Positions 42,873-64,000 of a stretch of 64,000 bases of DNA are shown here, piece by piece. The position numbers were made by a program, and so were the translations under genes. The notes below the pieces were generated by a model, which saw only the letters and a list, made by a program, of their open reading frames with translations, had not been told where the DNA came from and did no database searches. How positions within the stretch are numbered: the first letter of the stretch is position 1; each line of letters opens with the position of its first letter. The DNA is from Lysobacterales bacterium (GTDB taxonomy: Bacteria > Pseudomonadota > Gammaproteobacteria > Xanthomonadales > SZUA-5): positions 1-64,000 of the forward strand of contig JALHMH010000001.1 in assembly GCA_022844165.1 (NCBI GenBank), given 5' to 3'.

Positions 42873-44177
42873 TCACGACAGTTGCGCAGGGATGCCGTGT
42901 TCGCGACCGGGCAACAACAAAGCCTCGATCGCCACAGGCTCGATGGTCGGCGCAATGTCGCGGCGAAAGCGGGCGACCAGCGCGTCTTCGCGCCAGTCGG
43001 CGCGTGTGGCAAGTGCCGCCATAGCGGCGCGGGACTCGCGGCCTTCGCCCACACATTCGAAGGGCTTGTGCGCGCCCCATTCCAGCAGCGCGTCGTAAGC
43101 CGCTGTCAGCGCCGGATCGTCGAGAAAATTGCGGCCGAAGATGGCCAGCAGCGCCGGCTTGGTCATAAACGGCGCCAACGCCAGAAACACGAAGTGGCAC
43201 TTTGGACACTCACCGCACCAGCGCGACTCAGGACGTGGGCCGAGAATCTTGAAGTTGCGATTGCAGCTGGAAAAGTGCGCGTGATACCGATCCAGCGCCG
43301 CGAATCGTTCGGCGACGGCTAACTCGCTCAGCGGACGCAGGTAGGAGTAATACACCAGGTCGCTGGCCACCTCGGCACGCACGATCGCCGCGAACGCACG
43401 TTCGAAAGCCCAGCCTTTGCTCCATTGATGGTTGATTGGCTGTCCATCGCGCGTAAAGTTCTCCACACTTGCCGACGACTCGTTGGAAAATGCGATGCCA
43501 TCGTAGCCGTACAGCAGAGCCGCACACACGAGGACCGCGGAGTTGATGGCAGTGACCGGAATATGGCCGTTGTATGCGCCTTGTCGATTCAGTTCAAAAA
43601 GCTGCGGAGCGATATGTCGCTCGATATTGAGCACCGGCGCTCCAGAGATTCGCGCACACGCGGCAATCAAATCGGATTTGCCGACGTAAGTCGCGGCGAC
43701 CGGTTCGCCGCGTGTGCGCAATTCCTCCAGCGTGACAATGGAGTCTTTGCCGCCACCGATTGGTACCAACGTGCGTTTGCTCAAACCCAGCATCGCTGCC
43801 GGGGCGCGGCTCTCGCCGCCAGCGAAGCTGATGTAACCGCGCAGATCGATGCCATTGGCAACTGCGAATTCGCCGAGACCTTGCACATAAACGTCGGTCA
43901 AAAACTCGGCGCGCCTGTCTGACATCGGTGCGAGTTCAATGCGCGGCGGCAATAGAGCCTTGTAATAACTGACACCAGCGATGGCGTGCAGCAAACTGAT
44001 CGCCGATTGCACTGCTTCGCGGCGGGCGGCGGGTATCGCAGGTGTGCCCGGAAACAAGATGCGTTCGATGAGCGGTTCGCTATCGTCGAATTGATAGGGC
44101 AGTGTCAGCACGCCGTCAGCATACGTCGGCGCTAAAAAACGCAGCACTCTGGCCTTGGCAACAATCTCAGAGCGCAT
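42873..44177 (-). CDS. murL: UDP-MurNAc-L-Ala-L-Glu epimerase MurL
   Basis: AGVSYYKA, GGGKDS, NGHIPVTAINS, NHQWSK, FSSCNRNF, WCGECPKC, KPFECVG; adjacent to lysAC. Confidence 0.85.
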   Translation of the reverse strand: MRSEIVAKARVLRFLAPTYADGVLTLPYQFDDSEPLIERILFPGTPAIPAARREAVQSAISLLHAIAGVSYYKALLPPRIELAPMSDRRAEFLTDVYVQGLGEFAVANGIDLRGYISFAGGESRAPAAMLGLSKRTLVPIGGGKDSIVTLEELRTRGEPVAATYVGKSDLIAACARISGAPVLNIERHIAPQLFELNRQGAYNGHIPVTAINSAVLVCAALLYGYDGIAFSNESSASVENFTRDGQPINHQWSKGWAFERAFAAIVRAEVASDLVYYSYLRPLSELAVAERFAALDRYHAHFSSCNRNFKILGPRPESRWCGECPKCHFVFLALAPFMTKPALLAIFGRNFLDDPALTAAYDALLEWGAHKPFECVGEGRESRAAMAALATRADWREDALVARFRRDIAPTIEPVAIEALLLPGREHGIPAQLS

Positions 44178-46725
44178 CGCTGAAAATCTCCCTGGCAGGC
44201 TCGCGCTGGTTGTAACGCGAAGACATCACAGCGCCATAGGCACCCGCATTGGCAATGAGCAGTACGTCGCCTTCGATCGGATTGGCGATCCAGCGATCGC
44301 TGCCCAACACATCGCTGGATTCGCAAATCGGTCCAACAATATCGCAGAGCGTTGCAGCCGGTTGATCGGCGCGGCTTAGATTGCTGATCGCGTGCCAGGC
44401 ATCATAGAGGGCAGGCCTGAGTAAATGGTGCATCCCGGTATCGACGCCGACCTGAAGGATGTCGCCCTTGCGGCGAACCTGAGTGACCCGCGTTAGCAAG
44501 ACGCCCGCTTCGGCGACCAGGTAACGACCGGGTTCGATCCATACCTCGAACGGCTGAAACAACGTGCGCACATGCGCTAACGTCGATCGCAGTCGGTCGA
44601 TATCGAGTTCGTCGTCGTCGCTGGCGTATGGCACGCCCAATCCGCCACCGATATCGAGCACGCGTACGGCCGGAAAGTGATCTGCCAGTGACGCGAGCCC
44701 GGCGTAAACATCGCGCCAGTGATTGGGATCGATTTCGCCGCTGCCCAGATGCGCATGCAAACCAACCACAGTTGCGCCCGCCGCGTCTGCAGCCGCTCGC
44801 GCCGCGACAGCTTCGCCGATCAGCAGGCCGAACTTGCTGCGCCCGCCGCCGGTCTTGACCTTGTCATGGTGACCCACGCCACGGCCAAGATCGAAACGCA
44901 AGAGCAGCGAGCGCCCGGCGAACAGTTCGGGCCATTGTTGCAACGGATACAAACTGTCGATCGTGACATTCACGCCGCGAGCCAAAGCCGCCTCATACTC
45001 GGCGCGTGGGGCAAAATTGGGCGTGAACAAAATGCGCTCCGGCTCCAGCTTCGGTAGCGTCGTGCATACATGATCGAGTTCCGCCAGAGAAACGCATTCC
45101 ATGCCAATTCCGCCAGCGGCGATGCGCCTCAGAATGTCGGGATGTGCGTTGGCTTTAAGCGCATAGAAGCAGCGATCGGCACCGATCGACTTGACGCGCT
45201 CTATCGCTGCGCCCAACTGTGAGCTGGCATAGACATAGGTGGGTGCCGATCCTGCAAGTTCGAGCAGCATTTCTCCAGACGATTGCCACCAGGCATTGCG
45301 TGGCGAGGGCTGGTTGCCAAGTAGCGTGTTCCACGCTGGACCGAACACGCTGTCGCCGGGCGCGCCAATTAATCCTGCCTTCACCAGTTGACAATGCAAT
45401 CGCTCGACGATGCCCTCCGCATCGCTGGCATCGATCACGAACGTCAGATTCAAGTTGTTCGACGATTGCGAAATCAAATGGACGCGTCGCTCGCCGATCT
45501 CGGCGAGCACATCGCTGAGTCGGTGCATCATCGCGCGCATGCCGCGGCCGACCAGCGTTATCGCCACGCAGGGGGCGATGACTTTCACCCGGCAAACCTG
45601 CGCCAGGTCTTCACATAGTGCGGTCAACGCTCGCTGGTCGAGCAGGTTCTCGCTCGGATCAAGCGATACCGTCACGTTGGTCTCCGCCGAGCCGATCAGG
45701 TCCACCGAAAGGCCATGGCGTTTGAAGCGTTCGAAGACGTCTGCCAAAAATCCCACCTGCTGCCACATGCCGATGCTCTCCATCGACACCAGCGTGATGC
45801 CCGTGCGCATCGAAACCGCTTTGACACTCAAGCGTTGCGTGGCTGCTTCCGGGCCAATCACAGTGCCGGCCAATTCGGGGCGCTCAGTGTCCTTGATGAG
45901 CAGCGGCACGCGGGCTTCGCGCACCGGGTTGATTGCGCGTGGATGCAGCACTTTTGCGCCGGTGGTTGCGATCTCTTGCGCCTCGTCATAATCCAGCTCG
46001 CGTAACAACCGTGCGTTTGGCACGAGTTTCGGATTGGCACTGAACATGCCCGGTACATCGGTCCAGATTTCCACGCGTGCAGCGCCCAGCAGAGCGCCGA
46101 AATAGCTCGCCGAAGTGTCCGAGCCGCCGCGGCCAAGCAGCACGGTCTGGCCCAATATGTTGCGGGCAATGAAGCCTTGCGTGATCGAGAGCGGTGTTTC
46201 GTGACTCCAGCGCCGCGCAATCGATGCATTGAGCTCGGGCGAACACTGCGCGCTAAGCGAGCGTGCCCAGGCGGTATCGTGTTCCGCATCGATACTGCAC
46301 AGGTAGTGGCGGGCGTCTCGCCAGGTCGTCTTGAGTCCGGCGCGATTGAGGAAAGCAGCGCCCAACGTACTGCTCAGCAGCTCGCCGCACGCCAGCAGTG
46401 CCGCCTGTTGCGCTGGCTCCGGATGCGCGATCAATGCCGTTCTCGCAACCTCGAATTCGGCCCAGATGGCGTCCAGGCAGTTGACCGGCACGGCCAGTTC
46501 ATCGGCCATACGCCGATGTCGATCGATGATCGCTCCGACCATCGTTTGATCGCCTGGTGCTTCGGCCAGTGCTTTAAGGCGATCGGTCATTCCCGATAGT
46601 GCCGACACCACGATCAACACCGGTCCCTGCCGCAGGCGATCCTCGGCAATGGTGGCGATGTTCGCCCAGCGGTTTTGCGTTGAGACGCTGGTACCGCCGA
46701 ATTTTAGAACTGTAATGGCAGACAT
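44167..46725 (-). CDS. Bifunctional aspartate kinase / diaminopimelate decarboxylase
   Basis: VLKFGGTSV, LGRGGSDTS, ACT domains, YALKAN, IEPGRYLVAEAG, GPICESSD. Confidence 0.96.
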   Translation of the reverse strand: MSAITVLKFGGTSVSTQNRWANIATIAEDRLRQGPVLIVVSALSGMTDRLKALAEAPGDQTMVGAIIDRHRRMADELAVPVNCLDAIWAEFEVARTALIAHPEPAQQAALLACGELLSSTLGAAFLNRAGLKTTWRDARHYLCSIDAEHDTAWARSLSAQCSPELNASIARRWSHETPLSITQGFIARNILGQTVLLGRGGSDTSASYFGALLGAARVEIWTDVPGMFSANPKLVPNARLLRELDYDEAQEIATTGAKVLHPRAINPVREARVPLLIKDTERPELAGTVIGPEAATQRLSVKAVSMRTGITLVSMESIGMWQQVGFLADVFERFKRHGLSVDLIGSAETNVTVSLDPSENLLDQRALTALCEDLAQVCRVKVIAPCVAITLVGRGMRAMMHRLSDVLAEIGERRVHLISQSSNNLNLTFVIDASDAEGIVERLHCQLVKAGLIGAPGDSVFGPAWNTLLGNQPSPRNAWWQSSGEMLLELAGSAPTYVYASSQLGAAIERVKSIGADRCFYALKANAHPDILRRIAAGGIGMECVSLAELDHVCTTLPKLEPERILFTPNFAPRAEYEAALARGVNVTIDSLYPLQQWPELFAGRSLLLRFDLGRGVGHHDKVKTGGGRSKFGLLIGEAVAARAAADAAGATVVGLHAHLGSGEIDPNHWRDVYAGLASLADHFPAVRVLDIGGGLGVPYASDDDELDIDRLRSTLAHVRTLFQPFEVWIEPGRYLVAEAGVLLTRVTQVRRKGDILQVGVDTGMHHLLRPALYDAWHAISNLSRADQPAATLCDIVGPICESSDVLGSDRWIANPIEGDVLLIANAGAYGAVMSSRYNQREPAREIFSDAL

Positions 46726-46933
46726 CCAGGCGACCAGGGTTGTATTGTTGCGACGCAATATAGTCCGATCGATATGCGTCGCGGCGCAACAAATTTCGTC
46801 GGTGTGACGTTGTTTTGGACGTTCAGCGATCATTGACAAGGCGCGGCTTTCACACTTAGTCTCCGCACCACGTCTGCTTCTAACGCAGACGAAGACGTCA
46901 GCCCCATTTGCTCGAACCAGGGATTTCATAAAA

Positions 46934-54669: not shown

Positions 54670-56499
54670 TCAATCAAGCGCGTATCGCTGCATGTAGTCG
54701 GTTCTCAAAGCGACCGACTGGTCCGCCTTCAACAGTACTGCGTTTTCGATCACCAGCGCATCCAGCTCGCACCCCATGAAACAGCGAAATGCGTCCTCAG
54801 GCGTGCATACGATGGGTTCGCCGCGCACGTTGAAGGAGGTATTCACCAGTATCGGACAACCTGTGAGCTGCTGAAACGCCGTCAACAGAGCGTGGTAGCG
54901 CGGGTGGGTTTGTGCGTCCACCGTCTGGATGCGCGCCGAATAATCGACATGCGTCACTGCGGGCACCGTTGAACGCGGCACATTCAACTTCTCGATGCCG
55001 AACAAACTCAGTTCCTCATCGGTCATCTCTCGCCGATGCTGCGCTTTGACGTCTGCAACCAGGAGCATATACGGGCTGTCGACGTCCATATCGAACCACT
55101 GCGCGACATCCTCTCGGCGCACGCTCGGCGCAAATGGTCGAAAGGACTCCCGATACTTCACTTTGAGATTGAGCTGCTTTTGCATCGTGGGCGAACGTGG
55201 ATCGGCCAGAATGCTGCGCGCCCCCAATGCGCGCGGCCCAAACTCCATCCGGCCGCAGCACCAGCCCACGGCCAGACCTTCGGCCAACCACGCGGCGGTT
55301 TGCGCGATCACAGCATCCTCGTTGAGCACGCGATAAACGGCGCCGGCCTGGTCCAGTGTGTCGGAGATCTCCGTCAGCCGAAACGATGGACCGAGGTAAC
55401 TGCCACGCATCGCATCGCCATTCGCCCGGCGTGGTTGCGAAAGCGCGATGTGATGCGCTGCCAGGGCCGCGCCCAGAGCACCGCCGGCGTCGCCAGCCGC
55501 TGGCTGGATGTAAAGCTCGTCGAAAACCCCGGCGCGCAGCAGCTTGCCATTCGCAACGCAGTTCAGAGCGACGCCGCCAGCCAGACAGAGCCGCCGCATG
55601 CCGGTGCTGCGGCGCGCAAACTGCGCCAGTTTCAATACGGCCTCCTCCGTCACGGACTGGATCGACGCGGCCAGATCCATCTCGCGCTGCGTCAACGGCG
55701 ATTCGGGCGAGCGCGGCGGACCACCGAACAGCGCGTGGAAACGCGCGTTGGTCATCGTCAGGCCAGTGCAGTAGTTGAAGTACTTCAAGTCCAGCGCAAA
55801 GCTGCCGTCGTCGCGCAGATCGATCAAATGACTTTTGATCAAGTCCGCGAATCTGGGTTCGCCGTACGGCGCCAAACCCATGATTTTGTACTCGCCAGAA
55901 TTGACCCTGAATCCGGTGTAGTAGGTGAAAGCCGAATACAGCAAGCCGATCGAATGCGGGAACTGAATTTCGCGCTGGACCTTCAATTGGTGACCGCGGC
56001 CAATCGCCAATGATGTGGTCGTCCATTCGCCGACGCCGTCCATGGTCAACACCGCAGCCGCATCGAAGGGCGACGGGAAAAACGCACTCGCAGCGTGGCT
56101 CAAATGGTGCTCGGAGAACATCAGCTTCTGCGCGTAATCGACATCGTTGCCGAAGACACACAGCGCCTCGCAGATCTGGCGTTTCTGGAACAGTTTGTCC
56201 TTCAGCCAAACCGGCAAGGCGGCAGCGAAACTTCTGAAGCCACGCGGGGCAAACGCCAGATAGGTTTCGAGCAGGCGTTCGAACTTCAAGAACGGTTTGT
56301 CGTAAAACGCGATGCCATCCAGCGTAGCGATATCGACACCGCCCTCGCTCAGGCAGTATCCGATGGCATGCTGCGGAAAGGACGGATCGTGCTTGATGCG
56401 CGTGAAGCGCTCTTCCTGCGCCGCGGCGACGATTTGCCCATCGACCAGCAATGCCGCCGCTGCGTCGTGGTAGTACGCGGAAATGCCGAGTATGCGCAT
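54670..56499 (-). CDS. CmcH/NodU/SxtI-family O-carbamoyltransferase
   Basis: ISAYYHDAAA, EERFTRIKH, HHLSHA, DGVGE, GGVALN, EFGPRALG, NTSFNVRGEP. Confidence 0.95.
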   Translation of the reverse strand: MRILGISAYYHDAAAALLVDGQIVAAAQEERFTRIKHDPSFPQHAIGYCLSEGGVDIATLDGIAFYDKPFLKFERLLETYLAFAPRGFRSFAAALPVWLKDKLFQKRQICEALCVFGNDVDYAQKLMFSEHHLSHAASAFFPSPFDAAAVLTMDGVGEWTTTSLAIGRGHQLKVQREIQFPHSIGLLYSAFTYYTGFRVNSGEYKIMGLAPYGEPRFADLIKSHLIDLRDDGSFALDLKYFNYCTGLTMTNARFHALFGGPPRSPESPLTQREMDLAASIQSVTEEAVLKLAQFARRSTGMRRLCLAGGVALNCVANGKLLRAGVFDELYIQPAAGDAGGALGAALAAHHIALSQPRRANGDAMRGSYLGPSFRLTEISDTLDQAGAVYRVLNEDAVIAQTAAWLAEGLAVGWCCGRMEFGPRALGARSILADPRSPTMQKQLNLKVKYRESFRPFAPSVRREDVAQWFDMDVDSPYMLLVADVKAQHRREMTDEELSLFGIEKLNVPRSTVPAVTHVDYSARIQTVDAQTHPRYHALLTAFQQLTGCPILVNTSFNVRGEPIVCTPEDAFRCFMGCELDALVIENAVLLKADQSVALRTDYMQRYALD

Positions 56500-56648
56500 C
56501 AGAACAAGGTGTAGATGAAGGGCGCCAGCACGGAGCCTTTGGCGATCAGCAAAATGCCGCCGATCAGTACCATCAGGATCACGATCGGCATCAACCAGAG
56601 CTTCTTACGCGCCTTGAAAAATTCGTAGAGTTCTTTGAGGAACGACAT
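56499..56648 (-). CDS. DUF5989/SxtK-like small membrane protein (not in ORF track)
   Basis: MSFLKELYEFFKARKKLWLMPIVILMVLIGGILLIAKGSVLAPFIYTLF. Confidence 0.9.
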   Translation of the reverse strand: MSFLKELYEFFKARKKLWLMPIVILMVLIGGILLIAKGSVLAPFIYTLF

Positions 56649-56653
56649 GGCGG

Positions 56654-57046
56654 TCAATACTGCCGACGAAAGGAATCAGATTCTGGCCCAGGCGGGGTGC
56701 GCTCGATCCAGTAGCTGGACGCACCGCGCTTCAGGCGCAGAGCATCCCGCCCGAAAGCGCGGGTTACCATGGCCACCGGCGTGATGAGCAGGAAGAACAT
56801 GGCGCCGAGCACGATCGGGCTGATGATGCGGCCGAGTAGTAGTCCGAATGCCATCCATGCGCGATTGAACGGTGCGAGACGCGTCGGGCGAAACCAGGCG
56901 AGCAGCGCGGTGGTCGTCGCCAGGGCAATCGCAATCGTCAACAGCAGCGCATGCGATCGCCACGCCGCCCACGCCGCGACCAGGGAAAAAACAACGACAA
57001 ACAAAGCGCCAAAACGGCGGTTGGTTGGCAGTGGCGACGATTGCAT
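56654..57046 (-). CDS. SxtJ-family membrane protein
   Basis: RRFG, PFNRAWMAFG, GRDALRL, SYWIER. Confidence 0.88.
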   Translation of the reverse strand: MQSSPLPTNRRFGALFVVVFSLVAAWAAWRSHALLLTIAIALATTTALLAWFRPTRLAPFNRAWMAFGLLLGRIISPIVLGAMFFLLITPVAMVTRAFGRDALRLKRGASSYWIERTPPGPESDSFRRQY

Positions 57047-57934: not shown

Positions 57935-58669
57935 CTACTCAGAAAGCCGTGGCCGGAAACTGTATGGCGGCCACGGACCTGAGCAGCTCAAAAATATCCC
58001 CTCGGCGGCCAGCGTCTCGCGAGCGGCATCGACATCTTGCTGAAACGCATGCTCACGCGCCCTATCGATCAGCAGAGCGATATTCAACAGCGGCTGAGCC
58101 TGCTGACCTGGAACAACCGCCTGGCGACGAACTTCGGTGCGCGCACGCGCCTGCGAGAAAAGCGGCGCCAGCAACTCGTCGATTCTCGTGCGGGCGGCTT
58201 CCTGGCGAATCCGGCGCCGTTCCGGCGCGGACTGCTTAGCTTTCAACCACGCAAGACCGCTCATTCCCGATGCCGGGACTTCAGTGCCTTCTTCGCCGTC
58301 GGCGAGTATCGCCTTGATGCCCCACTCGGCAGCGCCGGCGACGTTTGCGAAGTACCGCTCCAACTCATCATGGTGTGCGCTGGCCGCGCATAGCAACTCG
58401 TCGGCCGCAGGCACGATGAGTCCAAATTGAAGCGGATACGCAGCCACCGTCTGACATATCTCCGTCACTGCGCTGTGCTGTCTGGCCAGTGCCCACGACA
58501 GCCATTTCGCGTCCTGCTGCGTGATATCAGAGTAGCGCTCCACGTCTGTCGCTTCGAGCGCTAAACAAAGAAGCGTCCAAGGTCCTTCAGTTGCCACCAC
58601 TTCCAGGCCCTCAACAGCGGGAAGCTCCGGTGCAGAACCAGTGGCGACCAGCGCAATTGGGTTCAGCAT
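57935..58669 (-). CDS. GvpL/GvpF-family gas vesicle protein
   Basis: H..AV, PLQFG, AEWGIK, LNIALLI, terminal SGPWPPYSF motif. Confidence 0.85.
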   Translation of the reverse strand: MLNPIALVATGSAPELPAVEGLEVVATEGPWTLLCLALEATDVERYSDITQQDAKWLSWALARQHSAVTEICQTVAAYPLQFGLIVPAADELLCAASAHHDELERYFANVAGAAEWGIKAILADGEEGTEVPASGMSGLAWLKAKQSAPERRRIRQEAARTRIDELLAPLFSQARARTEVRRQAVVPGQQAQPLLNIALLIDRAREHAFQQDVDAARETLAAEGIFLSCSGPWPPYSFRPRLSE

Positions 58670-58784
58670 TGTGAATCCTATGACAAGACCAGACCGCGAC
58701 AATACGGCAGCTCAGCGCTGACATCACAACTACTACAACTAAGTGGGTAGTTCCCGGCGACAGATCGCAGGGAATGATAAGGAC

Positions 58785-60578
58785 ATGAAAAGGGCCTTCC
58801 CCACGTTCCAGGTCGATCAATCGCGACGCCGCAAGCGCATGCGGACGGTTCTGCGGGGCGGCCGCTTTAGTTGGAACACTGGACTCTTCCGCGGAGCGAC
58901 GGACTTGAACGAATTGCCAGCCGCGCTACTTGAATCGGACGGCGAGCTGCTTGCGGCAATTCTTGAAGCGCTGCCGACGATGCTGATGGTCTTCGATCGG
59001 ACTGGCAAGCTGCTGCGCGTCAATCGTTCCTTTCAGTCCATTGCGGGCTACTCGCCAGACGCCATCGAACATCTGCACTTTTCCAGTCTGTTCGCCGATT
59101 CCAGTGCGCAGTCGCAATGGCAAACGGCCCTGGCCTGCAAGAACTTGAATGCCATCGAGTGCAATGAATACTTGACCAACCGCGCCGGGCGGCGGGTGCC
59201 GCTGGAACTGGCATTGGTGCGAGTGGGCGAGGCGGCCGATTTACGTATCGTGGTCGGCGCCATTGACTTGCGCAGTCAGCGCACGACCGAACGCCATCTG
59301 ATCCGACAGGCCTACTTTGATGCGTTGACGCGATTGCCCAATCGTACGGGTTTCAAACACCAGCTGGCGTTGCGCATTGCCGGCAGTTTTCAGCGCGACG
59401 AGGACTCTCTCGCTGTTGCCGTAGTCGATGTTGCACGCTTTCGCGTCATCAACGATGCGATCGGTCATGACGGTGGCGATGCATTGTTGCAGAGCCTCGC
59501 CAGCCGACTCCAGTCCAACCTCCAGGATGTGGTGATCGGGCATTTGAGTGCCGGCGAATTTGCTGTGATGTTGACCGATGTGCGCAACGAGCGCGACGCG
59601 CTGCGTGTCGGCCAGCGAATCCTTGGATTGTTTCGGGAGGCATTCCTGGTGCGCGGCCAACGCATCGTGCTCAACGCACGCGTTGGTGTGGCGCTGGCCG
59701 ACGCCAGGTCGGACCCCGCGACCGTGATGCGCGATGCCGATTCTGCACTTTTCGAGGCCAAGGAATCCGCTCAGGGTGTGCGTGTCTTCGACCGGTCGAT
59801 GCGCCTCGCCAGCGAAGCACGCCTGCGTCTGGATATCGAACTCCGCGCAGCCGTCGCGCGCGATGAATTTCGCCTGGTGCTGCAGCCGATCGTCCGTGTG
59901 CAGGACGGCACATTGGTCGGGCACGAAGCCCTGGTTCGCTGGGCACATCCAACTGCCGGCGAGCTGCTTCCCGCGCAATTCATCGCGCATGCTGAGCGCT
60001 CCGGGGTTATCTCCGCCATCGACGCCTGGTCGCTGCGAGCTACTCTGGAGTGGCTGGAAGACACGCGAACGGGTCTGTCCTGTAACGTCAATACGTCGGC
60101 GCTGTCGTTGTTGGATCAGGTGTGGTTAAACGATGCCGTACGCCTTCTCGAAGAACACAGCGAAGCGGCAAAACGACTACGCATCGAGATCACCGAAACC
60201 GCGCTGCTTGGCGATGCCCAGATCACTGCTGCGGCGCTGGAGCGATTGATCGGTGCTGGCGCGCAAATCGTCCTCGACGATTTTGGGACTGGCTACTCCT
60301 CGCTCGTGCATCTGCAGAGTTTTCCGATCTCCGGCATCAAGGTCGATCGTTCGTTTCTTGCGCGCCTGGATTCCGATCGGCGGGACCAGACGATTGTTGC
60401 CGCGCTCATCGGTCTGGCAAGCGAACTGGGTCTGACGGTCACCGCCGAAGGCGTCGAGACTGAAACGCAACGTGCTTGTCTGATCGAGCACGGGTGCGAG
60501 TTTGCGCAGGGATATTTATTCGGTCGACCCGCGCCCGCGGCCGCGACCTTGCAGCACTCTCTTGGAGCAATCAAATGA
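58785..60578 (+). CDS. PAS-GGDEF(degenerate)-EAL c-di-GMP protein
   Basis: PAS (VNRSFQSIAGYS), DALTRLPNR, SAGEF in place of GGDEF, EALVRW, DDFGTGYSS, KVDRSF, EGVE, QGY; RBS AAGGA. Confidence 0.93.
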   Translation: MKRAFPTFQVDQSRRRKRMRTVLRGGRFSWNTGLFRGATDLNELPAALLESDGELLAAILEALPTMLMVFDRTGKLLRVNRSFQSIAGYSPDAIEHLHFSSLFADSSAQSQWQTALACKNLNAIECNEYLTNRAGRRVPLELALVRVGEAADLRIVVGAIDLRSQRTTERHLIRQAYFDALTRLPNRTGFKHQLALRIAGSFQRDEDSLAVAVVDVARFRVINDAIGHDGGDALLQSLASRLQSNLQDVVIGHLSAGEFAVMLTDVRNERDALRVGQRILGLFREAFLVRGQRIVLNARVGVALADARSDPATVMRDADSALFEAKESAQGVRVFDRSMRLASEARLRLDIELRAAVARDEFRLVLQPIVRVQDGTLVGHEALVRWAHPTAGELLPAQFIAHAERSGVISAIDAWSLRATLEWLEDTRTGLSCNVNTSALSLLDQVWLNDAVRLLEEHSEAAKRLRIEITETALLGDAQITAAALERLIGAGAQIVLDDFGTGYSSLVHLQSFPISGIKVDRSFLARLDSDRRDQTIVAALIGLASELGLTVTAEGVETETQRACLIEHGCEFAQGYLFGRPAPAAATLQHSLGAIK

Positions 60579-62731
60579 TGGATGGCAGCGACGCCTTGAA
60601 TGATGCGGTCGATTCGTTCGCGCGTGCGAAAGGGCTATTCAGTCCTGCGGCGATGGGCTACTACCAGGGCGCTTTGCAGGCGCGCCAACACCTGGCCAGT
60701 GCGGCAATCATTTTCGACCGGGCTCAGGCGATCGCACGCGATGCGTGCGAGCTGGCCCGACCGTCGTTCGAACGCTCGGGTCTCATGGTGCATGCCGATG
60801 CTCTGGCGAGCGCCGAGCGCGACCTGTGCATGTTTGCTCAGGTGTGCGCGCGCGCATTGACGGGTGCGGATCGCGATCTGGAAAAAGGATACCTGAGGCA
60901 AGTGGCGACAGCCTCCAGCCTCGGTATGGACTTTCACGACTCCAGCCCATTGTTGCTGGGATTCGCCTGGTGCGCGGCTGCCAATCACTTGCAAGGACAA
61001 GCGCTGTGGTGCTTTCGCGCGGCCTGCGAACGGGCACAGTCCGCGTTGCGTAACGCTGCCAGCGGAGCGGCACTCAGCGCAGCGGCAGGCGACATTGGCG
61101 CTGGCGCTTACCCGATGTTGTCATCGGCTCACCCGGAACTGGATCAGATTTACGGCGCTGTGACAGCGGCAAAGTGTCCGCGCGATATGAGCATGATGCT
61201 CGGCACAGCAGCGCACGAATGGCTGGCCGAAGGGCGGCAAACGCCGTTAACCCAATGGATCAGCTGGCTCGTCGCCGCGATCGGGCCGCACGTTGCGCGC
61301 TACAGCGGCGATGTCTGGGGCAGCGTTTTTGCCAGCCTCGCGGCCGCCTCGTTGAGCCGGGTGCCGACGCAACAGTTGCCTGGGTGCGCCGCACCCCTTT
61401 TGGAGATTTCGCTTCACGGACATGCGCTGCGGCGCGCGGTGCATGGTTTGTTGCGTGCCGAAGATGCCGGGCATTTGAGCGCGCGGCGCAATAGCGAATC
61501 GGTAGCGGCTGCCCCCCACCATCAGCAGCGGGTCGCGCGGTTGTTTGCTGCACTCGCTTGCGCCAGCGTTGTGGGCGACCATGCCTATGCCGAGAAAGCG
61601 GTAGCAGACTTGCTCAACGAAGTCCGAACCTCGTCCAGTGAGCCATGTCTGCTCGGCCTTGCGTCGGCAGGCAGCGAAGCGATGGGTGTTGCCTACACGC
61701 CATTCGTCGCGCAGGCAATCGATGCTGGAGTCGATTCGGCGCGTGCGTTCGCCTTGCTACAGGGCGAGTGGCGCCACTTGCCAGACATCGCCAAAGGCGT
61801 CGTAGACCAGCTGAGTTTACCAACGGGTATGTTGCCGTGGCTCACCGGCGTTCTGGCGCTGCTGCTGGAACTGGCGACCAGCCGTTCTGCGCCGCGAGCC
61901 GAGCTTGCTCTGGGCGACCGGCTTCTGGCGGATTTCCTGGGGCTTTCGGGCAGCACGCCGGCCATTGAGGCGCAAGCCTTGCGTGCGCTGGCCGCTCGAG
62001 TACGCGAACATCCGGCCTCTGCCGTGGCGCGCCTAAGCACCTTGTTAAGCTCGCTGGGCGCAATGACCGACCGTTGGGAAGTGGTCTTTGTGATGCGCGC
62101 GGCAAGCAATCGCGGCGATGCCAGCGAATCCTGGACCGGGGCACTGTCCGCGCGCCTGGCCGTCGTATTGATCAATAACGCAAGCGAAAATTCCATTGCA
62201 GACACCGTGCATTGGTTGGCGACGGCATGGGTACCCCACGTGCGCTTCGCCCTGCCCGAACAATCGCCAGAGGTGCTGGCCGCGCCGGCGATTGCAGAGC
62301 TTCAGGCGCAACTGCCCATAGAGCAGCACGGTCGAATTGCGCAGCTCGCCGAGGGCATCGCCGATGCGGCGACCGCCCATGCGATGCTGGCAAACGCCGA
62401 TGCCTGGTGTGCTCAAGCGGTTGCGGAGATGCGAACGCGACCGAGCTTTGCGTCAGTGCGTGGGATTGAGACCAGGTGCATCCGCGATCTGACCATTTTG
62501 CTCAAGTCGATCGCTTGTTTCCTGGGCTCAGGACTTGGCGATGTTCCTATACGAGTTCGCGCATTTGCAGCGGCGCACTTGTTGCCGTTCCTACAAGAAG
62601 AAACGCGCAACTTCGGCACTGAACTGGTTGCAGTGTTGCAGGCGCAGATGGCACAACTGAGCGGCACGTCGCGCAACCGGGTCGCAGCGCTCCTGGCCTC
62701 AGTTTATCAACACGACGGTGCCCCGCAATGA
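60575..62731 (+). CDS. 718-aa helical protein with tandem phycobiliprotein/globin-like repeats
   Basis: GGAG RBS, ATGA overlap with upstream gene; AERDL (80-84), KCPRDM (200-205), RCIRDL (634-639) in phycobiliprotein helix-E-like contexts. The ORF is solid; the family call is by eye. Confidence 0.65.
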   Translation: MMDGSDALNDAVDSFARAKGLFSPAAMGYYQGALQARQHLASAAIIFDRAQAIARDACELARPSFERSGLMVHADALASAERDLCMFAQVCARALTGADRDLEKGYLRQVATASSLGMDFHDSSPLLLGFAWCAAANHLQGQALWCFRAACERAQSALRNAASGAALSAAAGDIGAGAYPMLSSAHPELDQIYGAVTAAKCPRDMSMMLGTAAHEWLAEGRQTPLTQWISWLVAAIGPHVARYSGDVWGSVFASLAAASLSRVPTQQLPGCAAPLLEISLHGHALRRAVHGLLRAEDAGHLSARRNSESVAAAPHHQQRVARLFAALACASVVGDHAYAEKAVADLLNEVRTSSSEPCLLGLASAGSEAMGVAYTPFVAQAIDAGVDSARAFALLQGEWRHLPDIAKGVVDQLSLPTGMLPWLTGVLALLLELATSRSAPRAELALGDRLLADFLGLSGSTPAIEAQALRALAARVREHPASAVARLSTLLSSLGAMTDRWEVVFVMRAASNRGDASESWTGALSARLAVVLINNASENSIADTVHWLATAWVPHVRFALPEQSPEVLAAPAIAELQAQLPIEQHGRIAQLAEGIADAATAHAMLANADAWCAQAVAEMRTRPSFASVRGIETRCIRDLTILLKSIACFLGSGLGDVPIRVRAFAAAHLLPFLQEETRNFGTELVAVLQAQMAQLSGTSRNRVAALLASVYQHDGAPQ

Positions 62732-64000
62732 GCGTGCCGAGTTCACCTCTTCGCGGTTGTTTCGCCTCTAGTAGCGCGGCTGGACTCAGCGCACGCCTGC
62801 GCGCCGTGCATTCTGTGGCCATCGCCCGGGAACTGAGCGTGCTCAGCGCCTCGTTGCGCAATGGCAACAGCGAGGAGTTGGGCGATCTGACCGAACTTGC
62901 CGACGGCGATGCGTTGGCCGAAGTTCTGGATGAGCTTGCCAGGCGCCTGACCACGCCTGAGCAGATCGCTGCGCAACCGATGCCGGCCTGGGTCAGCATC
63001 GCGCAGCGTTCGCGGGACTATGTCGATATCGACGATTTGTCGCCGCTGGTGGAGCGCATTGTGGCGCGTATCGCGCGCCGCGTCGCACCCGGAACCCGTA
63101 GCTTCGTTGAACTCTATGTTTGGGAAGCGCAGGCAGCATTCGAGGTGTTTCGACAACGCTTTCAGATCGCGCAGGATATCGATGCCATCGTTGCCGAAGT
63201 GTTTGCCGGGCTGGCCCATGCAATGCGCCTCCTCGATGAAGACGCGAGCCAGGTGGATCTGGAGGAGTTGCAAAGCAGCTTCGCGCAAGTCTTGCGCGAG
63301 TGGACGAAGCTGTTGAGCGACATGGGCGCAGTGGTCGATCTGGAACTGATCAGACTCTTCGTCAACGAACTTGCGGTTCGCTACCGCTTGAGCCCGCGGA
63401 TATGGTCGTTGCTGATTTTGCGCCTCGATCGCGCGTTTTCGGTGCGCGCCGATAACCGCCTCGAACACGTCTTCGGCGATGCGATCGAGGGCTTGCTCGG
63501 TGCTACGCAACGGTTCGATTTCTTGCGCGATCTGCGCAGCGACGGGTATGCCTATTTGCCACCGGACGCCGAGTTGTGGGGCGATCTGGTCAGCGTGATG
63601 ATTGTCGTTTCGCTACGTCCGGGCTCGCGCCTGGAAGCGCGTTCGGCGCGGGCTTTGAATTTGGCGGCCGTCAGCGATCTGGTCGGCGGGCGTTGGGACG
63701 ATTTCGAGCAAGCCGTTCGCCTCGGCTCGGCCGGCCTGCGCAATCGCTGGGAGCGCAATTTCCTGGACTTGTACACGGCGGGGTCAGCGCGCCTGCTGAC
63801 GGTCGCCAAAGTTGCCAGTGAGCTGGCAGCGCAGGACTTGAGTGCAGTCCACGATCCGTCTGTCGAAACGTTGCTGCTGAAGGCGCGCGCAGCGATCGTA
63901 CTGGGCGCTGATGTGCCTGCTCAGCGCAGTCTGTTTCGTGTTGGCCTTTCGCAGGTGATCGAATTGCCCAATCGCTCGCAGTTGCGCGTACTCGCGCAGC
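62728..64000 (+). CDS. Large helical hypothetical protein, partial (not in ORF track)
   Basis: ATGA overlap with previous stop; 424 codons without a stop to the window end (MSVPSSPLRGCF...RVLAQ). Confidence 0.8.
   Translation, partial: MSVPSSPLRGCFASSSAAGLSARLRAVHSVAIARELSVLSASLRNGNSEELGDLTELADGDALAEVLDELARRLTTPEQIAAQPMPAWVSIAQRSRDYVDIDDLSPLVERIVARIARRVAPGTRSFVELYVWEAQAAFEVFRQRFQIAQDIDAIVAEVFAGLAHAMRLLDEDASQVDLEELQSSFAQVLREWTKLLSDMGAVVDLELIRLFVNELAVRYRLSPRIWSLLILRLDRAFSVRADNRLEHVFGDAIEGLLGATQRFDFLRDLRSDGYAYLPPDAELWGDLVSVMIVVSLRPGSRLEARSARALNLAAVSDLVGGRWDDFEQAVRLGSAGLRNRWERNFLDLYTAGSARLLTVAKVASELAAQDLSAVHDPSVETLLLKARAAIVLGADVPAQRSLFRVGLSQVIELPNRSQLRVLAQ

Follow-up and report, generated by a model that had tools for sequence, protein, structure and literature searches.

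The globins closest to the protein considered here are the BBAGs (bilin biosynthesis-associated globins), which belong to the pre-1 and pre-3 pre-PcyA clusters described by Rockwell, Martin and Lagarias (2023; PMC10151467). According to the text of that paper, BBAG-1 and BBAG-3 need no lyase to bind bilins, and some of them have a C-x-R-D (CXRD) motif; the published proteins are weakly fluorescent and photoinert, their function is stated as unknown, and the BBAG clusters of heterotrophs are proposed as the source of PcyA and of the phycobiliprotein lineage. The stretch analysed here (the window) is the 64 kb at the start of a 317-kb contig (JALHMH010000001.1, assembly GCA_022844165.1) from a Lysobacterales bacterium with a 4.68 Mb genome that is 99.97% complete, and contains a gene encoding a 718-residue protein, here called T718, and directly downstream the gene for a 1282-residue paralogue, B1282. 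T718 is predicted to consist of four globin-fold domains and helical linkers, two of the domains with CXRD, one with AXRD and one degenerate, and the best-supported reading is that it belongs to the bilin-binding globin lineage as a tandem fusion of four domains and acts as a multi-site bilin acceptor. We consider it probable that this predicted cytoplasmic protein, with its four fused phycobiliprotein/BBAG-type globin-fold domains, serves a pre-1-type pre-PcyA operon as its dedicated bilin acceptor, in a host that has no photosystems. The gene and its parts are as follows (window positions, strand).

60575..62731, forward strand: T718 gene, tandem phycobiliprotein-like multi-globin protein (stop-free 718-residue open reading frame, homologues, AlphaFold2 model)
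60602..61054, forward strand: globin domain 1 (residues ~10–160), phycobiliprotein type with N-terminal X-Y helices and the Cys-less A80-E-R82-D83
60812..60823, forward strand: A80-E81-R82-D83, Cys-less equivalent of C-x-R-D; R82 invariant, aligned to C201-x-R-D and C635-x-R-D
61040..61462, forward strand: globin domain 2 (residues ~156–296), holding K200-C201-P-R203-D204
61172..61186, forward strand: K200-C201-P202-R203-D204, candidate bilin attachment site 1; K, R and D invariant, aligned by HMMER to A-K-C-A-R-D of phycocyanin alpha
61580..62074, forward strand: globin-like domain 3 (residues ~336–500), degenerate, without x-R-D
62342..62728, forward strand: globin domain 4 (residues ~590–718), holding R634-C635-I-R637-D638
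62474..62488, forward strand: R634-C635-I636-R637-D638, candidate bilin attachment site 2; R637 and D638 invariant

Like BBAG-1 and BBAG-3, T718 is a phycobiliprotein-related globin with CXRD, and its gene, in a non-photosynthetic bacterium, is clustered with those for a pre-PcyA reductase, a haem oxygenase, an iron-sulfur protein and two V4R proteins. Unlike these BBAGs, which are single globins in the text of PMC10151467, it fuses four globin-fold domains with two CXRD motifs and one AXRD motif, and it forms a rare family of its own, of which a search of 1.84 billion representatives gave 11 at E<=0.001. The identities of its domains are ~15–20%. T718 shares with the alpha and beta subunits of phycobiliproteins (C-phycocyanin alpha, allophycocyanin) an E-helix K-C-x-R-D that aligns to the Cys84 site, but those subunits are single, lyase-dependent domains of ~160–170 residues that form alpha-beta units, rings and phycobilisomes, whereas T718 is a tandem fusion with ~10–15% identity to them. 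Phycobiliproteins moreover feed photosystems, while the genome encoding T718 gave neither photosystem matches nor a match to a CpeS-type lyase. The core-membrane linker ApcE resembles T718 in that a single large chain joins a domain of phycobiliprotein type to further helical segments; ApcE, however, has one such domain followed by REP/linker domains, whereas T718 repeats the globin domain itself, and no linker families were found in Pfam scans of T718 and its homologues, which returned PF00502 and a few weak unrelated families only. Photoglobins and photocobilins are likewise bilin-binding-type globins of non-phototrophs fused to other domains, but the text of PMC10151467 describes for these a B12-binding domain and a site of the CXQD or RGMC type, and T718 has no B12 domain by Pfam. 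The same text gives for the slr0144-slr0152 locus of Synechocystis the same core set (an iron-sulfur protein, two V4R proteins and the globin slr0149) with the Ser/Thr kinase SpkG nearby; the reductase and the haem oxygenase are missing from that cluster, and the text mentions no giant multi-globin genes in it.

Multidomain or tandem BBAGs and ApcE go unmentioned in the main text of PMC10151467, the Fig. 3A and SI Fig. S11 of which may already draw such large open reading frames as those of T718 and B1282. In the searchable literature we found no description of phycobiliprotein-like multi-globin proteins with V4R proteins in heterotrophs; Fig. 2b of PMC13446030 (2026) may draw them, and the text of that paper leaves undescribed a protein that adjoins the haem oxygenase and spans a scaffold break. 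As far as searchable text shows, the fused multi-globin architecture is new within the known kind of BBAG cluster.

The T718 gene is real, and its homologues were recovered by word-indexed as well as by profile searches. The forward-strand frame claimed in an earlier note, which was made from the DNA letters alone, is present at its full 718 residues with no internal stop. Its ATG overlaps the TGA of a PAS-GGDEF-EAL gene (ATGA), with GGAG 8 nucleotides upstream, and at its 3' end the stop codon TGA overlaps the B1282 start codon ATG at 62728; the overlaps at both ends thus indicate that the PAS-GGDEF-EAL, T718 and B1282 genes are translationally coupled. The word-indexed search returned eight proteins at E<=0.001, comprising T718 itself and seven full-length homologues of 45–70% identity, while six of the 11 proteins from the profile search were full-length (~740–770 residues), with identities down to 19%. 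The family is rare also among relatives of the host: of 298 further genomes sampled from the order, two carry it, and these two belong to the same family as the host. A pattern scan of genome contigs for T718 relatives gave 39 pattern matches, none of them confirmed. The sequencing runs listed with the gene are five DNA runs from two studies, with no RNA run among them.

The three motifs were located where the earlier note had placed them, with CPRD beginning at residue 201 (nucleotide 61175), CIRD at residue 635 (nucleotide 62477) and AERD occupying residues 80–83. Two or more C-x-R-D motifs arose in 0.075% of 100,000 composition-preserving shuffles of T718, and at least one in 4.1%. Conservation was assessed in an alignment of 14 homologues with identities down to 19% (A2 below; a smaller alignment of eight members is called A1), in which R82, K200, R203, D204, R637 and D638 were invariant (14/14). 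Loss of C-x-R-D among homologues had been named beforehand as a finding that would speak against a phycobiliprotein-like protein; instead, besides the invariant Arg/Asp pairs, Cys201 was kept in 11/14 and Cys635 in 12/14 sequences. D83 was found in 12/14, with Asn in the other two, and Cys took the place of A80 in 2/14, both distant, so that some family members have CXRD in domain 1. In profile-profile alignments the three motifs of T718 were in register with each other and with the K-A-P-R-D of a small BBAG encoded in the same operon. In HMMER alignments the motifs K-C-x-R-D (domain 2) and R-C-x-R-D (last domain) fall on the A-K-C-A-R-D of phycocyanin, which places both C201-P-R-D and C635-I-R-D at the E-helix bilin site of phycobiliproteins (Cys84).

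Homology to solved phycobiliproteins was found at the profile level. When the A2 profile was compared to sequences in the PDB, 32 of the 36 matches at E<=10 were phycobiliproteins, and domains 1, 2 and 4 were each covered. The best match was a phycocyanin alpha chain (E 6.6e-4, query 594–670 to chain 21–102), while domain 1 was matched by ApcB3 (E 0.008, query 39–112 to chain 36–112) and domain 2 by a phycobilisome core component (query 150–225 to chain 28–104). The smaller A1 profile gave six PDB matches, four of them phycobiliproteins. The Pfam family PF00502 ("Phycobilisome protein", gathering cut-off 22.2 bits) was listed in 6/8 members of A1 and in 8/10 individually scanned homologues (E<=0.5), and exceeded the cut-off in 3/10, namely P0007 (25.1 bits) and P0015 (28.2 bits), both in domain 2, and P0017 (45.5 bits, E 1e-11) in the C-terminal domain. 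A check with PF00502, as had been proposed earlier, thus gave matches in these homologues and none in the sequence of T718 itself. Scans of T718 and its neighbour against NCBIfam, and a phmmer search of T718 alone against PDB sequences, yielded noise only, and the best cosine in the ESM Atlas was 0.89, to unrelated clusters.

The AlphaFold2 model of T718 built from A2 is all-alpha, with a mean predicted local distance difference test score (pLDDT) of 87.5 and a predicted TM-score (pTM) of 0.88. Structures were compared with VIA-align against 48,161 chains, independently of Foldseek. For residues ~10–160 the top matches were allophycocyanin (8or7_A, 15.2; root-mean-square deviation 3.3 over 144/158 residues, chain 8–159), a phycobilisome core subunit (8imk_G, 13.7), phycoerythrin (1b8d_A, 13.2), a photocobilin (8j2y_B, 12.9) and the bilin-binding domain of ApcE (4xxi_A, 12.8), and the globin fold includes the extra N-terminal X-Y helix pair that marks phycobiliproteins. 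A HEAT/TPR fold, which the earlier note had listed together with any other non-globin fold as a reason to abandon its proposal, is rejected, since globins and phycobiliproteins head the structural matches. The values for domain 3 lie within the grey zone that the tool states for helical proteins and, together with the Foldseek result given below, leave domain 3 as a probable globin-fold domain in the model.

Internal repeats were evident when blocks of A2 were aligned by hhalign. Domain 2 matched the last domain with E 4.1e-6 over 114 columns, domain 1 matched the last domain with E 1.5e-5, domains 1 and 2 matched each other as non-overlapping blocks with E 5.8e-4, and domain 2 matched the small BBAG family of the operon with E 1.3e-5; the A/C-x-R-D motifs were aligned in every one of these pairs. 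Arbitrary middle blocks (296–440 and 436–590) compared to the clear domains reached E 0.0015–0.1 only. Models, fold searches and profile-profile repeats taken together thus give four globin-fold domains joined by helical segments, and the proposal of about six modules of ~120 residues is rejected. The description of these modules as two with Cys, one without and the middle ones degenerate agrees with the two CXRD domains and the one AXRD domain, but only one domain is degenerate. The phycobiliprotein or globin-like nature of the protein is supported by the register of the motifs, the A2 matches in the PDB and the structural matches of domain 1. Overall, the fold, the motif and the non-cyanobacterial host were read correctly from the sequence, whereas the module count was not. 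A co-fold prediction of T718 with the small BBAG scored 0.00, which is no answer, neither for nor against binding.

T718 lies near the start of an operon that encodes bilin synthesis and signalling proteins, flanked by further genes (contig positions, which equal window positions up to 64,000).

57935..58702, reverse strand: GvpL/GvpF gas-vesicle gene, divergent from the operon (Pfam PF06386, E 3.2e-26)
58743..60578, forward strand: PAS-GGDEF-EAL gene (Pfam EAL 3.4e-63, GGDEF 1.6e-29, PAS); its stop overlaps the ATG of T718
62728–66576, forward strand: B1282, the 1282-residue paralogue, of which 62728..64000 lies in the window; translationally coupled, weak PF00502
about 66489–67046, forward strand: 2Fe-2S ferredoxin (Fer2)
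67091–67750, forward strand: V4R protein
67763–69928, forward strand: 721-residue coiled-coil protein, rich in Q/E/A/L, no Pfam family
69925–70524, forward strand: 199-residue small BBAG (PF00502, E 5.8e-10) with K-A-P-R-D and no Cys
70531–71229, forward strand: second V4R-like protein
71222–73162, forward strand: Ser/Thr kinase
73159–73803, forward strand: 214-residue protein without assigned identity
ending at 74300, forward strand: dual-specificity-phosphatase-like protein
74297–74980, forward strand: ferredoxin-dependent bilin reductase (FDBR; PF05996, E 9.7e-17)
74991–76163, forward strand: ferredoxin-reductase-type flavoprotein
76209–80848, reverse strand: bacteriophytochrome histidine kinase, LuxR-type response regulator and haem oxygenase

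The phycobiliprotein-related globins are thus clustered with an FDBR, a haem oxygenase, a Fer2 protein and two V4R proteins, as is typical of BBAG systems, and three of the operon's proteins together contain no fewer than seven phycobiliprotein-like domains. B1282 contributes modules resembling domain 2 of T718 at residues ~549–672 (hhalign E 1.4e-5) and ~798–937 (E 2.2e-5). Aligned by phmmer to Synechocystis PcyA, the FDBR has Glu at the position of Asp105 and Ser at that of His88, the combination of Glu and a missing His88 being that of pre-1 reductases; Glu at the Asp105 position is typical of pre-1 according to the text of PMC13446030. Given this Glu, the surrounding system is, judged by sequence, a pre-1-type BBAG cluster and hence of a known kind. 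The 17-member family of the small BBAG has K-A-P-R-D in 12/17 and K-C-[PV]-R-D in 5/17, and because it is mostly without Cys the two CXRD sites of T718 would be the likeliest covalent bilin sites of the system. The haem oxygenase, 17 kb away, is the only one found in the genome and may therefore serve both the BBAG and the bacteriophytochrome systems. The bacteriophytochrome has the layout PAS_2-GAF-PHY-PAS-HisKA-HATPase-receiver, and its operon stands tail-to-tail with the BBAG operon.

Searches of the genome with Photo_RC (PF00124) and PsaA/PsaB (PF00223) gave no match, while both controls were positive in Synechococcus; a photosynthetic antenna role is rejected as unlikely because no reaction-centre or photosystem matches were found in the genome. 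A search for rhodopsins gave no match in the genome and none in its control, and so speaks neither way. The bilin genes that the same note had suggested looking for were recovered in part: haem oxygenase and FDBR were found, a CpeS-type lyase was not found in the genome search, and matches to the CpeT family lie elsewhere. The latter are three CpeT/CpcT-family (PF06206) matches above cut-off, located far from the bilin cluster (C11:75310-75852, C36:41630-42175 and C6:25988-26452) inside larger frames of 289–537 residues.

Gas-vesicle genes bracket the bilin block, with GvpL/F at 57935–58702 (reverse strand) on one side and C1:81091-85330 on the other; the latter region holds three gvpA-type genes (gvpA at 81091), an AAA_5 GvpN-like ATPase and a second GvpL/F. 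In a text search, no paper connected gas vesicles with phycobiliprotein-like proteins in nonphotosynthetic bacteria. Farther upstream in the window, the reverse strand encodes a carbamoyltransferase (PF02543/PF16861) followed by a small SxtJ-family membrane protein (PF19588, E 2.8e-9) at 54670–57046, and at 44167–46929 a 920-residue fusion of an amino-acid kinase domain, ACT domains and an Orn/DAP/Arg decarboxylase.

The arrangement is conserved in other loci, which were drawn from metagenome contigs (L015–L019 among them) and from two genomes of the same family, G076 and G167, the source genome being G000. A B1282 homologue directly follows the T718 homologue in 7/8 other loci, the eighth, on the short contig L019, giving no match, and a GGDEF-EAL gene is the immediate upstream neighbour in all six of the other loci whose DNA extends far enough in that direction. 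The order ferredoxin, V4R, coiled coil, BBAG, V4R, kinase, 214-residue protein, phosphatase, FDBR and ferredoxin reductase is kept in L016–L018, G076 and G167 up to the contig ends, and the FDBR is present in all three loci that reach that far (G000, G076 and G167). Of the 721-residue coiled-coil protein only the ends are conserved in other loci. The divergent upstream GvpL/F is present in L018, G076 and G167 and not in L015; in G076 and G167, GvpL/F and an AAA_5 ATPase are likewise paired with the bilin block. Among 399 other sampled genomes of the same class an FDBR was found in one, G533, from another family. Its cluster (C24:33837-39308) has a single open reading frame of 1824 residues in place of both large genes, with two B1282-like halves and a C-terminal domain that matches the last domain of T718 (E 2.1e-4), followed by ferredoxin, V4R, BBAG, V4R, kinase and a homologue of the 214-residue protein. 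Giant multi-globin genes of variable build therefore recur in such clusters.

From these data we infer bilin binding by T718, the identity of the bilin, autocatalytic attachment and all downstream signalling steps. The neighbouring haem oxygenase would convert haem to biliverdin, which the FDBR of the operon would reduce, probably to a phytochromobilin-like bilin, with electrons supplied by the NAD(P)H-type ferredoxin reductase and the 2Fe-2S ferredoxin. The bilin would be attached by thioether bonds at Cys201 in domain 2 and Cys635 in domain 4, probably autocatalytically as in single-domain BBAGs, and the invariant Arg/Asp pair at each site would hold the propionates and pyrrole nitrogens. 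Domain 1, with A-E-R-D, would bind bilin non-covalently or not at all, and domain 3 would be structural. The T718 holoprotein may form a multi-chromophore unit with B1282 and the small Cys-less BBAG. The GGDEF-EAL enzyme and the Ser/Thr kinase/phosphatase pair encoded with it would respond to the light or bilin state of this unit, and in this way might regulate the gas-vesicle genes on either side.

Several observations weigh against this reading. The sequence of T718 itself has no match to PF00502 even at E<=1 and stays below the gathering cut-off, and Foldseek, run with the full model against the PDB, found nothing at E<=0.001, its highest-ranking rows being large unrelated helical proteins. 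The model of residues 296–592 likewise had no Foldseek match at E<=0.001, with photocobilins and fused di-alpha haemoglobins appearing only at E 1.2–1.7. For the C-terminal domain the structural matches listed come from haem globins and sensor globins rather than phycobiliproteins; the VIA-align table shows one row per entry, and for this reason the phycobiliprotein rows are occupied by domain 1. Cys201 is replaced by Ala in 3/14 homologues of A2 and Cys635 by Ser or Ala in 2/14, the single pre-1 BBAG assayed in PMC10151467 was, according to its text, poorly chromophorylated, and the basis of the signalling and gas-vesicle link is gene neighbourhood. Some of the family's features would also suit a chromophore-free helical scaffold or adaptor, in which degenerate globins organise the operon proteins (the small BBAG, the V4R proteins, the coiled-coil protein and the kinase) in the manner of phycobilisome linkers and the R-D pairs are structural: domain 3 is without the motif, domain 1 is without Cys in 12/14 homologues, the pTM of 0.88 points to a rigid multi-domain body, B1282 has long stretches without detectable globin similarity, and ApcE, itself a scaffold, is among the best structural matches. 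Against a scaffold, K/R-C-x-R-D comprises exactly those residues by which phycobiliproteins touch their bilin, and two sites retain it in homologues of as little as 19% identity. The operon also holds a complete bilin-synthesis and electron-supply chain; furthermore, its only other globin is mostly Cys-less (12/17), so the large proteins are the better covalent candidates. We judge a scaffold without chromophore to be unlikely.

T718 might instead act as a bilin carrier or buffer that takes bilin from the FDBR, holds it for or passes it to the bacteriophytochrome or the small BBAG, and shields a non-phototroph from photosensitising free tetrapyrroles. The adjoining bacteriophytochrome operon, the several sites per chain and the tight linkage of the T718 gene to the biosynthetic genes would all be in keeping with such a role, as would the weak fluorescence and photoinertness of the published BBAGs. 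Covalent thioether attachment, if present, is not readily reversible, which argues against a carrier, as does the fact that bacteriophytochromes normally use biliverdin directly and need no reductase. We regard a carrier role as decidedly unlikely. T718 could also be a haem-binding tandem globin sensor of O2, NO or redox state that feeds the GGDEF-EAL enzyme and the kinase, its likeness to phycobiliproteins being shared globin ancestry. GGDEF-EAL partners are typical of globin-coupled sensors, and a His (H668) in the helix after the motif helix is found in 12/14 homologues, but this His is not common to the internal repeats, the profiles match phycobiliproteins and not haem globins (32/36 PDB matches, and PF00502 in homologues), domain 1 aligns across the phycobiliprotein-specific N-terminal helices (chain 8–159), and the operon converts haem to bilins. 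Haem sensing appears the least likely of the explanations weighed here. The multi-site bilin acceptor could be extended to a bolder picture, in which T718, B1282, the small BBAG and the coiled-coil protein form a fixed multi-bilin "proto-phycobilisome" that collects or senses light and, by driving cyclic di-GMP (c-di-GMP) and Ser/Thr-phosphorylation signalling, sets gas-vesicle buoyancy, and in which the tandem globin pairs are a surviving relative of the step that first turned bilin-binding globins into obligate multi-subunit assemblies; we hold this to be very unlikely.

Read as a multi-site bilin acceptor, T718 is a natural case of phycobiliprotein-type domains held in fixed geometry within one chain and a concrete protein to express for bilin binding. 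As the candidate covalent sites reside on the giant proteins and not on the small BBAG, attention moves from the single globin to the large fused chains. In this non-phototroph, bilin chemistry is brought together with c-di-GMP, a kinase/phosphatase pair, a phytochrome and gas vesicles, a connection that is genetically testable.

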